This document shows positions 40,372 to 45,464 of a stretch of 64,000 nucleotides of DNA, in pieces. The position numbers and the translations under genes were made by a program. The number at the start of each line of letters is the position of its first letter. Position 1 is the first letter of the stretch. The stretch covers positions 16,051-80,050 of the forward strand of contig CAYVVG010000003.1 in the NCBI GenBank assembly GCA_964455285.1. Direction: 5' to 3'. The DNA comes from an uncultured Prolixibacteraceae bacterium (lineage in GTDB: Bacteria; Bacteroidota; Bacteroidia; Bacteroidales; FEN-979). The notes under the pieces were generated by a model. The model saw only the letters and a program-made list of their open reading frames with translations, did not search any database and was not told the DNA's origin.

Positions 40372-40393
40372 CCCCTCCCTTGCAAAGGGAGGG
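40372..40393. repeat. REP-like hairpin CCCCTCCC-TTGCAA-GGGAGGGG, 7 nt downstream of the YidC-like stop
   Basis: Perfect 8-bp stem from the same CCCCTCCC/GGGAGGGG family. No U-tract on either strand. Confidence 0.8.
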
Positions 40394-40399
40394 GCGGGG

Positions 40400-41155
40400 T
40401 CAGGGTTTACGGGGGGATGCGGTGAGGCGGTACTGCACGATGTGAAAGATATTGGCGAAGGTCCAGTAGAGCACCAGCCCCGCCGGGAAAGAATAGAACA
40501 GCACAAAGAACATCACGGTCATGGCCAGCAGGAAGAGATCCTGCCATCTTTGCTCCTTCTTCTCGGCCGAGGGGGCCGGCGCCAGTTTGAATGACAGTAG
40601 GGTGAAGACCGACATCAGCACCGGCAGCAGGTTGAAATACTCTCCCAGCAGGGGAATGGAAAAGCCAAAGGAGAAGAGCTGGTCGGGAAGGGCCAGCGAG
40701 TCGATCCAGAGAAAGCCGGCGTTTTTCAGCTCTGCGGCCGACCCCAGCACCTGGAACAGGGCGATCAGGATGGGCAGCTGGATCAGCACGATCAGCAGGG
40801 GTTTCAGCCCGGCAAAGGGGCTCACCCCGTGATCCTTGTACAATTGCAGGATCCGCTCGCTCTGTTCCCCCCCTTTCCAGGTCTTTTTGATCTCCGCCAG
40901 TTCGGAGGCCATGGCCTTCTGCGCTTCCAGGAAACGGACCTGGCTCTTCATCGCCTTGCGGGAAAAAGGAAAGAGCAGGATGCGGATCACAAGCGCCAGG
41001 AGAATGATGGCAACGCCCCAATCGGGGATCAGCGCGTGCAACCCCTTCAGGAGGTACTGCAGGCCCACGCTGAGCCACTCCATCCAGATCCAGATGCCCG
41101 AGAACAACAGCAGGCCGGGGGCGGTGATCCCGGCATGGAAGAACGACACGATCAT
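40400..41155 (-). CDS. Short YidC/Oxa1-family membrane insertase paralogue (no large periplasmic domain)
   Basis: 251 aa. WGVAIILLALVIRILLFPFSRKAMKSQ, LYKDHGVSPFAGLKPLLIVLIQLPILIALF, FLWIDSLALPD and PAGLVLYWTFANIFHIVQ follow the conserved YidC core motifs. Confidence 0.8.
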   Translation of the reverse strand: MIVSFFHAGITAPGLLLFSGIWIWMEWLSVGLQYLLKGLHALIPDWGVAIILLALVIRILLFPFSRKAMKSQVRFLEAQKAMASELAEIKKTWKGGEQSERILQLYKDHGVSPFAGLKPLLIVLIQLPILIALFQVLGSAAELKNAGFLWIDSLALPDQLFSFGFSIPLLGEYFNLLPVLMSVFTLLSFKLAPAPSAEKKEQRWQDLFLLAMTVMFFVLFYSFPAGLVLYWTFANIFHIVQYRLTASPRKP

Positions 41156-41367
41156 GCCGAGGGCTTTTGCGGCGGGTCGGCCTTCCCGGGAGATCCGGTC
41201 TCAACCTTTTTCCGTAATCCAAGAAAACGGAGGATCTTGTGCCAGAAGAGCTTGACGGCGATGGCCGCGCCCACCACGCTGGCCACGATGGCCTGCAGGA
41301 TGATGCTGCCTGTTCCCGGATCGATGTAAGCCAGGATCTGTAACGGAATGTTCAATAATGCACTCAT
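41152..41367 (-). CDS. 71-aa single-pass membrane ORF, ATGA-overlapped with the YidC-like gene
   Basis: MSALLNIPLQILAYIDPGTGSIILQAIVASVVGAAIAVKLFWHKILRFLGLRKKVETGSPGKADPPQKPSA has a hydrophobic core followed by a basic, Pro-rich tail. Its TGA stop (41154-41152) overlaps the ATG of the next gene (41155-41153). Confidence 0.55.
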   Translation of the reverse strand: MSALLNIPLQILAYIDPGTGSIILQAIVASVVGAAIAVKLFWHKILRFLGLRKKVETGSPGKADPPQKPSA

Positions 41368-41484
41368 TATATCGGTTTTTAGATTTTCATAGTGTGGTCG
41401 ATTGTTATTGACCCGGTAAATTTATCAATCGATCTTCAATGATGGCGTAATACTTTCTTATATAGTTTGCAAGAGCCCTTCAGA

Positions 41485-42897
41485 TCAAGCCTTTCTTTTC
41501 ATGCGGTAAAGGGTTCTTTCCGAACCGTCGACCGGACGTTGTTCCAGAATTTCGAAGAACTTCCCGAACTCTTTCCTGAAGTTCTCCTCATCGTAGGTCC
41601 CGAAGATATCCCTCCTCGATTCGAGCAGTTTCTGCACCTGTGAGTCGGGTTTCGGGACGAACTCGATGATGAGGTTTTCGCTGAGGCGGCTCAGGAAGGA
41701 GGCGATATGCCGGAAGGGGAGGTTGTTGGAGATGGCCAGGTGGTGGATCAGGGCGAGGGCGATCACGGCGTCGGGCAGCGACCGGGCTGAAAATCCGGGT
41801 CTCTCGCGGTTGTCCCATCCGATCGAGGGGCTCGGGTTGGTCAGGTCCATCACCAGGGGCAGCAGGTTCACGGTCTGCTCCGCCTTCACCTGCCGGTAAT
41901 TGAGATCGACCGCTACCGGATCGATATCGAAGGCCACGCAGTCGGCTCCCTGCCGGCAGGCGATCCGGGTGAATTCGCCGTTGTTGGCGCCCAGATCCCA
42001 CAAGGTGCCGGGGCGGATCGCCCGGACATAGGCATCGACGATCTCCTTCTTATGGGTGAACGAGCGGTCGGAGTAGTTGGTAAAGGTGTAATACTCCCCC
42101 CATTCGGTGGGCTGGTTCCTGATCTTCAGCTTTTCCGTCAGTTGGATCAGACTGATGATCAGGGCTTTCAGGTTGGCCAGCCGGATCTTCACCTCGCGCC
42201 CGGCGCTCCCCTTGTGCTCGTATTTCACCTGGGTTTTGGCGTGGAGGTGGAGGTGCATCAGCAGCGAAAAATTCCATCTGGTCTTCCGGGGCAGCAGCCG
42301 GCTGGCCAGGTCGAGCGGGATGCCGTCGAGGTGGATCCTGAGCAGCTGGTTCAGCCGGATGTCGGTGTGGCTCATCAGCGCGAGGGGGGCCAGGAAGTGC
42401 TGGCAATATTGCCGATAGGCTTCCCAGGGTTTGCCTTCGCGGTAGAGGTCGAACGAAAGGGTATCGATGAACACGGGTTTTCCCCGGTAAAACTGGATGT
42501 TGTAGGCACTGCCGTCCTTCAGGGTCATGCCGTGTTCCAGGGCGGCCTGTTGGATACGCAGGGTGACCAGCGCCGCATCTTTAAGCTGGCTGAACGACCA
42601 TTCGTAGGGGTAGGAGATGAACGGGATCTGCTCCGGCTCCAGGATCCGGTAAAGATCTCCCCCGGCGCCGGGGTGGCCCTCCAGTTCCCGGTGGGGGATC
42701 AGCAGCCCTTCCTCCGTCAGCTTCCGGTACAGCCCCGACCCGGTCAGATGATCATACTCTTCGCGGTAGCACCGGTTCACCTGTCGCAGCACCTTCCCCC
42801 CTTCGCTGAAAACAAACCCGCTGGGGTCGCGGAAAGAGCTGTCGTGCATAACACCGGAGTTTACCAGGTCGCTCTCTTGTTCCTCGTTATAATCCAT
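41485..42897 (-). CDS. Two-domain protein: N-terminal protein-kinase-like fold plus C-terminal class I SAM-dependent methyltransferase
   Basis: 470 aa. The C-terminal LWDLGANNGEFTRIACRQGADCVAFDIDP is MTase motif I. The N-terminal MTLKDGSAYNIQFYRGKPVFIDTLSF resembles the catalytic loop (D..N) and metal-binding (xID) motifs of RIO/Kdo-kinase-type folds. The kinase call is tentative. Confidence 0.6.
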   Translation of the reverse strand: MDYNEEQESDLVNSGVMHDSSFRDPSGFVFSEGGKVLRQVNRCYREEYDHLTGSGLYRKLTEEGLLIPHRELEGHPGAGGDLYRILEPEQIPFISYPYEWSFSQLKDAALVTLRIQQAALEHGMTLKDGSAYNIQFYRGKPVFIDTLSFDLYREGKPWEAYRQYCQHFLAPLALMSHTDIRLNQLLRIHLDGIPLDLASRLLPRKTRWNFSLLMHLHLHAKTQVKYEHKGSAGREVKIRLANLKALIISLIQLTEKLKIRNQPTEWGEYYTFTNYSDRSFTHKKEIVDAYVRAIRPGTLWDLGANNGEFTRIACRQGADCVAFDIDPVAVDLNYRQVKAEQTVNLLPLVMDLTNPSPSIGWDNRERPGFSARSLPDAVIALALIHHLAISNNLPFRHIASFLSRLSENLIIEFVPKPDSQVQKLLESRRDIFGTYDEENFRKEFGKFFEILEQRPVDGSERTLYRMKRKA

Positions 42898-43877: not shown

Positions 43878-45464
43878 TTATTTGTCCTCCACCTTTGGCA
43901 GTCGCGCATCCAGGTACTTGTTCAGCATCACCCGCAAGGCATTGATCGGGGAGATGCTGTCATAGAGATCCTTATAGTCCCTGTCGGGAAAATATACCGC
44001 GTTGAGCACTTGAAAGGAATGTTCCCGGTTCTTCAGGTACACTTCGTGAGGGCGGGGTCCGTGGTCGCTTTGAACAAAGATGACACTGCCCGCAGGAGGC
44101 TGATTCCTGATCATGTTCGCAGTCACACGGGCGATCTCGCCGGTGATGAAGATATATTGTTCGAGATAGGCAGCGTTGACCGTATTTTGTGCCGTGATGT
44201 ACCCTTCCGACCGCTGACCCTCGGAGCTGGGACCTTCGATGTAATTCCCCGAACGGTCAAATACGAAGGGAACATGCGGGCACATGATGTGCGCATAGGT
44301 GAATCTGGGGCTCTTCAGTTTGCTGGTGTTCTTCTCCAGGCAGGTAAGGATGTGCCGGGTAGCCGTAAAGCTTAAATTTTGGCTCTTGTCAACAGGGATG
44401 AGGAAATTGAATGACGAAAGCATGGAACTGTTGATCAGTTCCTTGTAGAAAGCACCGGATAGGGTTCCCGACAGGTCCGATGGGTCCGCATCCTGGTAAG
44501 CGAACGTCGCATCGGTATTCCCGAAACGGACTCCCGAATAGTGCTGGCTTAATCCTTCCATGACATCGATCGTGTAACCATGCTCCTTCAGAAAACGGAA
44601 AAGCCGGTTGTTATTCATCTTCTCCGTCTGGACACTGTAATCGATCTTATGAAGCTTTTCATGGACTTCCGTACCCACGGTATTCTGCGGATTCTCGATG
44701 TATTTCATAAAATCGGTACGGGTAACCGCTTCGGTAAGATATTCGAAATTCAGCAGGCTGGGTATGTTCCAGGTAGTCTGGTTGTAACGTACCGGACTGT
44801 TCCCGGCAAAGAAAAATCCGTTCTTTGCCATTTCCTCCGCAAAGCTGCCGGCATCATACCCCCACTCCTCTTTCATGGTTTTAACACTCGCCCCTTCATC
44901 GAGGATGATGAGGTAGATGTCGGGAAGTTTTGAGCGGTCGAATGCGTTGCCCGGTCCCTGAATATTCCCCGATTCCTTTTCGCGCTTGCCGGACTTCCGG
45001 ATCTCGCTGGTAACGATGGAAAAAGTGTTGAAGATCACCAATAATCCCACCGGGACCATAAAGATGATGTTGAGACTACCCAGGGTCTTCGGCTGGCGTA
45101 TCCGGCTGATCAGGTAGAACAAGTGAGCGTATACAACCAGGAGGATGGGCAGCACATGCCAGTGCCGGACTTCGGCAATTCTGTTCATACCATTGAATAT
45201 CAATGTGTAATTCCAGAATAACACCAGAAAGAGCAGCGTGACCAGGCTTCCCTTCAGCAGGCTTCTCAGCACTGTCGATGCAAGCCCCAAAAAAATCCCG
45301 GAAAACAACACCGAAAAAAGGAGAGGAAATACCAACTGATGTGCAACCAGCTGGTCGGCATTATGTCCATACAATGCCAGGATGGGATAGACTGCGAAAA
45401 CTAAAACGGTGAGAGCGGGGATCCCTTTACTTTGAAAGTGATCCGGCGTTGACTTTATCTTCAT
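43878..45464 (-). CDS. Sulfatase/alkaline-phosphatase-superfamily membrane enzyme (LTA-synthase/phospho-transferase-like)
   Basis: 528 aa. About 5 N-terminal TM segments. The extracytoplasmic domain has PDIYLIILDEGAS (metal site), YNQTTWNIPSLL (candidate nucleophile Thr) and VIFVQSDHGPR (the SDHG motif of the sulfatase family). Confidence 0.65.
   Translation of the reverse strand: MKIKSTPDHFQSKGIPALTVLVFAVYPILALYGHNADQLVAHQLVFPLLFSVLFSGIFLGLASTVLRSLLKGSLVTLLFLVLFWNYTLIFNGMNRIAEVRHWHVLPILLVVYAHLFYLISRIRQPKTLGSLNIIFMVPVGLLVIFNTFSIVTSEIRKSGKREKESGNIQGPGNAFDRSKLPDIYLIILDEGASVKTMKEEWGYDAGSFAEEMAKNGFFFAGNSPVRYNQTTWNIPSLLNFEYLTEAVTRTDFMKYIENPQNTVGTEVHEKLHKIDYSVQTEKMNNNRLFRFLKEHGYTIDVMEGLSQHYSGVRFGNTDATFAYQDADPSDLSGTLSGAFYKELINSSMLSSFNFLIPVDKSQNLSFTATRHILTCLEKNTSKLKSPRFTYAHIMCPHVPFVFDRSGNYIEGPSSEGQRSEGYITAQNTVNAAYLEQYIFITGEIARVTANMIRNQPPAGSVIFVQSDHGPRPHEVYLKNREHSFQVLNAVYFPDRDYKDLYDSISPINALRVMLNKYLDARLPKVEDK

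Follow-up and report, generated by a model that had tools for sequence, protein, structure and literature searches.

A core-only YidC gene overlaps the gene for a 71-residue membrane protein

We analyzed a 64,000-nucleotide (nt) stretch of DNA, here called the window, from an uncultured Prolixibacteraceae bacterium (Bacteroidota, Bacteroidales; GenBank assembly GCA_964455285.1, contig CAYVVG010000003.1, positions 16,051 to 80,050 of the forward strand), whose genome of 3.75 Mb is 98.5% complete. The subject is a small membrane-protein gene and the short yidC paralogue directly downstream of it, which belong to a module located within a long minus-strand polysaccharide cluster. The small gene (41152-41367, minus strand), defined by its open reading frame (ORF) and a family search, encodes 71 amino acids (aa). 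The accessory YidC gene (40400-41155, minus strand), recognized by PF02096, TIGR03592 and an AlphaFold2 model, encodes a 251-aa protein that consists of the YidC core only. The TGA stop codon of the former and the ATG start codon of the latter overlap in an ATGA (41152-41155, minus strand). On the 5´ side of the small gene is an AT-rich spacer of 117 nt (41368-41484, minus strand) containing TAAATTTA (41417-41424, minus strand), a promoter-like, consensus-level -7 box that stands 57 nt before the small-gene ATG. A perfect GC-rich hairpin without a T-run, CCCCTCCC-TTTGCA-AGGGAGGGG (40372-40393, minus strand), directly follows the YidC stop codon. An initial annotation of this DNA had described a YidC core without a large periplasmic domain, a 71-aa ORF with one hydrophobic helix and a basic, Pro-rich tail, the ATGA overlap and the AT-rich spacer with a near-consensus box. 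All of these descriptions held up, the first by profile scores, the AlphaFold2 model and alignment with long relatives, and the others upon inspection of the sequence. The same annotation had suggested looking for a canonical long YidC, and one was found as a 648-aa ORF on contig C1 of the same genome.

The arrangement of the two genes recurs in relatives. The 4-nt ATGA overlap was detected in at least ten distinct loci whose YidC lacks the first transmembrane (TM) helix, TM1 (L017, L018, L019, L022, L024, L144, L145, L148, L149 and L168). YidC forms with their own signal anchor or with a P1 domain start 7-28 nt after the stop codon of the small gene, such that the spacing ranges overall from -4 to +28 nt. 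The GC content is 0.38 over the 160 nt preceding the small-gene start. In 13 of 23 distinct loci, the Bacteroidetes -7 consensus TAnnTTTG is found at -64 to -66, directly after the stop codon of the upstream gene, and takes the form TA(A/T)TTTTG or TAAATTTG in the relatives; the window box, at -57, is one mismatch from the consensus (the last base is A, not G). Folding of the mRNA across 41100-41230 (minus strand) gave no unusual structure around the YidC start relative to shuffled controls (z = +0.42). The simplest reading of these sequence features is that the pair would be transcribed as a bicistronic unit from its own promoter, with translation coupled by termination-reinitiation. A translational fusion of the small ORF and YidC was also considered and rejected on topology.

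The small protein defines a large family under amino-acid-level selection

A word-indexed search with the small protein returned 91 relatives of 56-99 aa. An exhaustive profile search across 1.84 billion cluster representatives (clusters at 50% identity) returned 10,666 representatives at E ≤ 1e-3 and 2,824 at E ≤ 1e-10, nearly all of which are stand-alone proteins of 56-110 aa, from many phyla. No matching model was found in Pfam or NCBIfam, and a literature search on the invariant N-terminal motif yielded unrelated papers only. One cluster representative (P0246, 161 aa) has two matches to the profile, a tandem duplication within one ORF.

The window protein can be divided into a short hydrophobic leader (residues 1-13), the motif YIDPGTGS (residues 14-21), a TM helix (22-42, hydrophobic at 22-40), a basic amphipathic stretch, KLFWHKILRFLGLRK (about 39-54), and a variable tail (55-71). 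In the alignment, residues Y14, D16, P17, G18, T19, G20, S21, I22 and Q25 are invariant (YxDPGTGSIxLQ) and are followed by the hydrophobic helix and then a conserved basic amphipathic stretch, KLFWHRILKFFGLRK, with only the last 17-20 residues being variable. Across the family as a whole, the motif reads Y-[IL]-DPGxGS. The ratio of nonsynonymous to synonymous substitution rates (dN/dS) was calculated for 23 distinct small-gene sequences from YidC-linked loci and one near relative, a set in which dS is ~1.7 and saturated, and was 0.054 for the core, 0.14 for the N-terminal leader and 0.36 for the tail. Given the size of the family and this selection at the amino-acid level, the small ORF corresponds to a real protein and not a chance ORF, and conservation in relatives as a protein, which the initial annotation had proposed to check, is borne out. 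By its sequence, we take it to be a functional small inner-membrane protein rather than a leader peptide specific to one lineage. Small-gene copies broken by stop codons were detected in two genomes of the bacterium's own family that are without the accessory YidC (G377, C21:279939-280130; G355, C104:6720-6866), and are probably pseudogenes remaining after loss of the module.

The uneven distribution of selection bears on the proposal, put forward in the initial annotation, that the small ORF is an insertion-sensing leader resembling MifM of Bacillus subtilis. Under this proposal, the housekeeping YidC would insert the TM helix of the small ORF, and the tail would arrest the ribosome when insertion capacity is low, altering translation of the accessory yidC. 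The layout matches, in that a small TM ORF directly precedes an accessory yidC in a genome that also has a housekeeping YidC. The D-P-P present in the window tail is a known weak stalling context, and the ~29 residues from the end of the TM helix to the stop codon would be compatible with force sensing. However, the tail is the least constrained part of the protein, and DPPQKPSA is confined to this genome, with the relatives having D[PS]SEKQGDNKK-like tails; a PP-containing tail is thus not conserved at the amino-acid level. The strongest selection is instead on the N-terminal motif and the TM helix, the opposite of what characterizes an arrest peptide. The folding analysis revealed no structured element that would sequester the YidC start, the distance between the two genes varies among relatives, and with overlapping stop and start codons, a ribosome stalled at the final codons would block the YidC start rather than expose it. 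In the relatives, it is the final A-rich codons of the small gene that stand immediately 5´ of the YidC start. The initial annotation was to be given up if the ORF proved not to be conserved as a protein or if the genome had no second YidC; the ORF is conserved and the second YidC is present, yet these two points could not separate a leader from a partner.

The small protein has a procoat-like layout

The residues preceding the invariant Tyr are restricted in a manner reminiscent of a signal peptide, with Ala at position -1 in 73 of 87 distinct members and A, I or V at position -3 in 82 of 87. In Proteobacteria and other phyla, the leaders are canonical signal peptides that end in AHA, AYA, AQA or AFA before Y-[IL]-DPGxGS, as in the proteobacterial example ...INAFA followed by YLDPGTGS. 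We infer that the signal peptide is cleaved directly before the invariant Tyr. The predicted mature protein would have ~45-60 residues, with the motif outside, one TM pass and a basic cytoplasmic end. The members have an invariant Asp in the external segment and basic residues after the TM helix.

The accessory YidC retains the insertase core

The 251-aa protein was well above the cut-offs for PF02096 (132.2 bits, cut-off 35) and TIGR03592 (155.7 bits, cut-off 84.3). The AlphaFold2 model, based on an alignment of 73 relatives, had a mean predicted local distance difference test score (pLDDT) of 89.4 and a predicted template modelling score (pTM) of 0.85, and its best matches in the PDB were the YidC structures 6al2 (E. 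coli), 3wo7 (B. halodurans) and 3wvf, with a TM-score of up to 0.79 on the target. Alignment with long relatives revealed a clean deletion of TM1 and the P1 domain (PF14849), both of which are found in the sister long forms L016 and L036 and in the 648-aa YidC of this genome, as well as a short C-tail. The EH1-like helix, the five core TM helices and the cytoplasmic C1 hairpin are all kept. The groove residue Arg58, in the first core TM helix, is invariant in one YidC alignment and at least 90% conserved in another. As modeled, the insertase fold is intact in the accessory YidC. The housekeeping YidCs of Bacteroidales (L001, L093-L097 and L113-L140) have Lys at the groove position (..LTILLKIVLFP..), where the accessory protein keeps Arg.

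The accessory subfamily also has a nearly invariant signature of its own, K-G-G-E-Q-S-E-R-I-L-Q-L-Y-K (residues 94-107), at the tip of the cytoplasmic C1 hairpin. Bacteroidales housekeeping YidCs have basic, unrelated sequence at this tip, making GGEQSE specific to the accessory subfamily. We conjecture that the acidic tip may dock the basic juxtamembrane helix of the small protein.

Maximum likelihood analysis of 53 YidC cores placed the accessory YidCs in one clade (support 100/99), with a Verrucomicrobia protein as its sister (100/98), and the Bacteroidales housekeeping YidCs, including that of this genome, in a separate clade (100/100). Two planctomycete YidCs join the accessory and Verrucomicrobia group (96/82), though they have long branches and their placement is unsure. 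The possibility that the paralogue is a recent duplication of the housekeeping yidC was rejected by this separation of the accessory and Bacteroidales housekeeping clades. The forms without P1 make up a subclade (99/96) nested among P1-bearing forms of 525-559 aa, and the short form therefore arose through the loss of TM1 and P1 inside the subfamily. At two loci (L013, 1429-1935, and L021, 4697-5044), the small gene and the YidC core are separated by 430-670 nt that have no intact frame and then a partial P1; P1 seems to be eroding in these lineages, consistent with its full loss in the window form. In Pseudomonas chlororaphis (L164, CP027745.1, 6240-7831), YidC is split into a 254-aa ORF with a signal anchor and a P1-like region (for example, WDWVGLQSRYLALILAP) and a 276-aa core ORF, which overlap by 4 nt; the split is due to a frameshift or else reflects a genuine two-piece YidC.

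Among 90 genomes of the bacterium's own family, 12 have the paralogue (11 of 40 in its genus, 1 of 3 in a second genus and none in eleven further genera), as do 2 of 301 sampled genomes of its order. Judging from the tree and this distribution, the accessory YidC is a separate, patchily distributed subfamily that did not arise from the housekeeping YidC of Bacteroidales.

In gene content, the YidC paralogue depends on the small gene, but not the reverse

Within the bacterium's own family, the small gene was found in 18 genomes, and each of the 12 paralogues directly follows it in the same orientation. Among metagenome loci, the small gene is directly upstream in 11 of 11 with at least 47% YidC identity and is found in none of the four with 39% identity or less. 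The conservation of the small-ORF and short-YidC pair, another check suggested in the initial annotation, was evident from these counts. At more distant loci, with 42-54% YidC identity, a member of the small family is present in the operon in 5 of 5 assessable cases, including Pseudomonas chlororaphis; a sixth locus, which ends at a contig edge, was left out of this count. A Pelagibacter genome has two YidCs, of which the accessory one adjoins the small gene in convergent orientation, and in a Verrucomicrobia genome, which also has two YidCs, the related long YidC is encoded in a phosphonate operon, four genes downstream of the small gene. Overall, the small gene is directly upstream of the accessory YidC except in L164, L167, L036 and the convergent L033. 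Each of five Bacteroidales relatives with the pair has two YidCs, one being a 649-657-aa ORF and the other the accessory protein.

The reverse does not hold. For 80 loci with the small gene, the best 80 of 294 matches, taken from species-representative genomes of Bacteroidales, Alphaproteobacteria including Pelagibacter, Gammaproteobacteria, Planctomycetota, Verrucomicrobiota, Chloroflexota, Acidobacteriota and others, a YidC-like gene was found nearby in 15, leaving 65 without one. Genomes of other phyla with the small gene and the gene for a 470-aa protein, its commonest neighbor, have a single YidC in 5 of 5 cases. Such a distribution again argues against a regulatory leader, since thousands of members of the small-protein family are without a downstream yidC. 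The dependence seen in gene content therefore runs one way, from the YidC paralogue to the small gene, at all assessable loci from Bacteroidales to Pseudomonas.

In two relatives (L017 and L018), the small gene and YidC stand alone, with the sole 470-aa gene on another contig and one small-gene copy per genome; a second small-protein copy beside the relocated 470-aa gene was sought in both genomes and not found. Just upstream of the promoter box (~6840-6890 in L017 and the same position in L018), there is sequence for the C-terminal ~15 residues encoded by a 470-aa-type gene (...SERTIFWMKRR*), left over from the rearrangement by which the pair and the module became separated.

Neighboring genes point to phospho-modification of surface glycans

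In the window, the small gene is preceded by the gene for a 470-aa cytoplasmic protein that contains a methyltransferase (41485-42897, minus strand), and further upstream is the gene for a 528-aa membrane protein of the sulfatase/alkaline-phosphatase superfamily (43878-45464, minus strand; weak PF00884 match). A homologue of the former adjoins the small gene in 66 of the 80 loci, often with overlapping stop and start codons, and a sulfatase-family gene is near the small gene in ~55 of 80 (after jackhmmer). The 470-aa protein has no TM helix, and its C-terminal half is a class I S-adenosylmethionine (SAM)-dependent methyltransferase, which dominates the matches in a whole-chain Foldseek search of the AlphaFold2 model (pLDDT 90.2). 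In the N-terminal half, 32 homologues share D128, N133 and D145 without exception, and an invariant Arg, R38, occupies the position of the beta-3 Lys of kinases. Residues 1-270 gave no match at E ≤ 10 in phmmer searches against the PDB and Pfam. The 528-aa protein has five N-terminal TM helices followed by an extracytoplasmic domain, the same layout as LtaS, EptA and BcsG.

Elsewhere, the small gene has alternative partners: a TagF-like glycerophosphotransferase, phosphoenolpyruvate (PEP) mutase with phosphonopyruvate decarboxylase, or a PEP-utilizing protein resembling pyruvate phosphate dikinase (PPDK). A ~1,000-aa protein with PPDK_N and PEP-utilizers domains is encoded near the small gene in L087 (3747-6806) and L164 (398-3328), hinting that some versions of the module use PEP-dependent phosphotransfer. 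From the gene content of these loci, their common theme would be the phospho- or phosphono-decoration of surface glycans.

A proposed dedicated insertase or partner for the small protein

Collectively, these data are best explained if the short YidC is the dedicated insertase, assembly factor or stable partner of the procoat-like small protein, with the small protein being at the core of a glycan phospho-modification module, and we give this reading a probability of about 0.6. The ATGA overlap would co-produce both proteins through ordinary translational coupling. The accessory YidC would then insert or assemble the small protein in the membrane, or stay with it as a stable partner, and the acidic GGEQSE tip of the C1 hairpin may dock the basic juxtamembrane helix. 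By analogy with BcsF, the small protein would probably tether or organize the cytoplasmic enzyme at the membrane. The loss of TM1 and P1 in the window lineage would be secondary. A dedicated partner or substrate was the second possibility raised in the initial annotation, and it is supported by the presence of a small gene beside the accessory YidC at every assessable locus.

Several points weigh against this reading. Most genomes with the small protein manage with the housekeeping YidC alone. The leader of the window protein, at only 13 residues, is short for a typical signal peptide, and the Bacteroidales leaders are without a basic n-region. Short YidCs that lack TM1 must have another route by which to pass their own N-terminus across the membrane. 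The "kinase-like" label given to the N-terminal domain of the 470-aa protein, for which the D128/N133/D145 pattern is the only basis, is unconfirmed. Finally, synteny by itself does not tell whether the small protein is a substrate, a stable partner or part of a shared pathway. We also considered whether the small protein might substitute for the missing TM1, and rejected this possibility: the small protein accompanies long forms that have TM1, and its predicted N-out orientation is opposite to that of TM1.

An alternative that we regard as unlikely is that the clients of the accessory YidC are other membrane proteins of the module (for example, the 5-TM sulfatase-like transferase, single-pass paralogues or Wzm), with the small protein being a mere constant neighbor. 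Polytopic membrane proteins are indeed encoded in the same cluster in the window and in several relatives, and YidC is reported to help polytopic proteins fold (PMC7618853). However, L164, L167 and L036 have YidC and the small gene without a sulfatase-like gene, the pair stands apart from the rest of the module in L017 and L018, and the small protein is the only membrane protein that shares the locus with the accessory YidC in every assessable case.

More doubtful is the idea that the paralogue has been recruited to a non-insertion role, in which a permanent complex with the small peptide would scramble a lipid or a lipid-linked phospho-donor or present it to the modifying enzymes. Insertases of the Oxa1/YidC type have been reported to scramble lipids via the hydrophilic groove (bioRxiv 10.1101/2023.09.01.555937; PMC11997395), the pair is always found in loci for phospho- or phosphono-glycan decoration, and P1 and TM1 are dispensable in the accessory subfamily. 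However, conservation of the groove Arg and of the entire insertase core matches that of working insertases, and most modules function without the paralogue. An extension of this idea, which we offer as speculation and rate as similarly improbable, is that the YidC subfamily might be a fixed subunit of a Gram-negative glycan phospho-modification machine, with the YxDPGxGS peptide permanently in the groove and the complex, as a membrane gate or scramblase and not a general insertase, offering a lipid-linked or phospholipid donor to the modifying enzymes.

It is very improbable that the two genes are without any functional link and that their adjacency is the inherited synteny of one horizontally transferred block. 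The paralogue is patchy and looks horizontally acquired, and many of the loci examined are from one Bacteroidales genus. However, the two genes stay linked in Gammaproteobacteria and Pelagibacter, where YidC identity is 42-57% and neighbors, gene orders and orientation differ, and this level of protein identity argues against the recent transfer of one block; linkage also survives the break-up of the module in L017 and L018. The MifM-like leader deserves the least credence of all, given the variable tail, the PP motif unique to one genome, the lack of a detected hairpin and the preponderance of family members without a downstream yidC.

The literature generally credits Gram-negative bacteria with a single YidC (PMC10588454); the accessory subfamily spans Bacteroidota, Alphaproteobacteria and Gammaproteobacteria, with the related Verrucomicrobia locus just outside it, and reveals that natural YidCs can dispense with TM1 and P1. 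If the two proteins are a true insertase and its client or partner, the pair would be a natural minimal system for studying how YidC recognizes and handles substrates. The small protein itself defines a very large family that is without a Pfam or NCBIfam model and comprises at least 2,800 clusters at 50% identity. From SAR11 to Planctomycetes, this family would mark an uncharacterized module for the modification of surface glycans, and its invariant eight-residue N-terminal motif calls for a biochemical explanation.

Comparison with known systems

A close match in layout is MifM-YidC2 (YqjG) of Bacillus subtilis, where a small TM ORF is likewise directly upstream of an accessory yidC and a primary YidC is also present. 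MifM is a lineage-restricted regulatory arrest peptide whose functional part is a C-terminal arrest motif and which opens an mRNA hairpin. In contrast, the protein described here has an invariant N-terminal motif and TM helix together with a variable tail, its ORF overlaps that of YidC, no hairpin was detected at the YidC start, and it belongs to a very large family, most of which is without a downstream yidC.

In its own architecture, the small protein resembles M13 procoat, a classic substrate that is Sec-independent and YidC-dependent (PMC7886851), and Pf3 coat. These proteins are of similar size, with one TM helix and a basic C-terminal region, and most of the small-protein family shares with them an AxA-ended leader, alongside a very short acidic external segment. 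Unlike the phage coats, the small protein is cellular, its external segment of eight residues is invariant, and the leader is truncated in the window. The likeness places it in a functional class by layout rather than by homology, with its YidC dependence a prediction only.

The module as a whole recalls BcsE-BcsF-BcsG of the E. coli system for phosphoethanolamine (pEtN)-cellulose. BcsF is a single-pass peptide that recruits the cytosolic BcsE via its cytosolic tail and is encoded beside the pEtN transferase BcsG (PMC11470070). Both systems combine a cytoplasmic protein of ~470-520 aa, a single-pass peptide of ~60-70 aa composed of a TM helix, an amphipathic extension and a cytosolic tail, and a 5-TM transferase of the alkaline-phosphatase superfamily with an external catalytic domain. 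The cytoplasmic partner here contains a methyltransferase and is not a sensor of cyclic di-GMP, there is no cellulose synthase, and the Bcs system has no YidC. The resemblance is one of gene trio and topology, an analogy rather than an established sequence relationship.

For the accessory YidC itself, the parallel is with paralogues in Gram-positive bacteria and organelles, where YidC paralogues with distinct clients are well studied. Cox18 (Oxa2) of mitochondria and YidC1/YidC2 of Gram-positives are members of the Oxa1/YidC family that have narrow clients beside a general insertase, and the accessory YidC similarly occurs as a presumably specialized paralogue alongside a general one. Unlike Cox18 and YidC2, it is found in Gram-negatives, is encoded beside its presumed client and has often been stripped of TM1 and P1.

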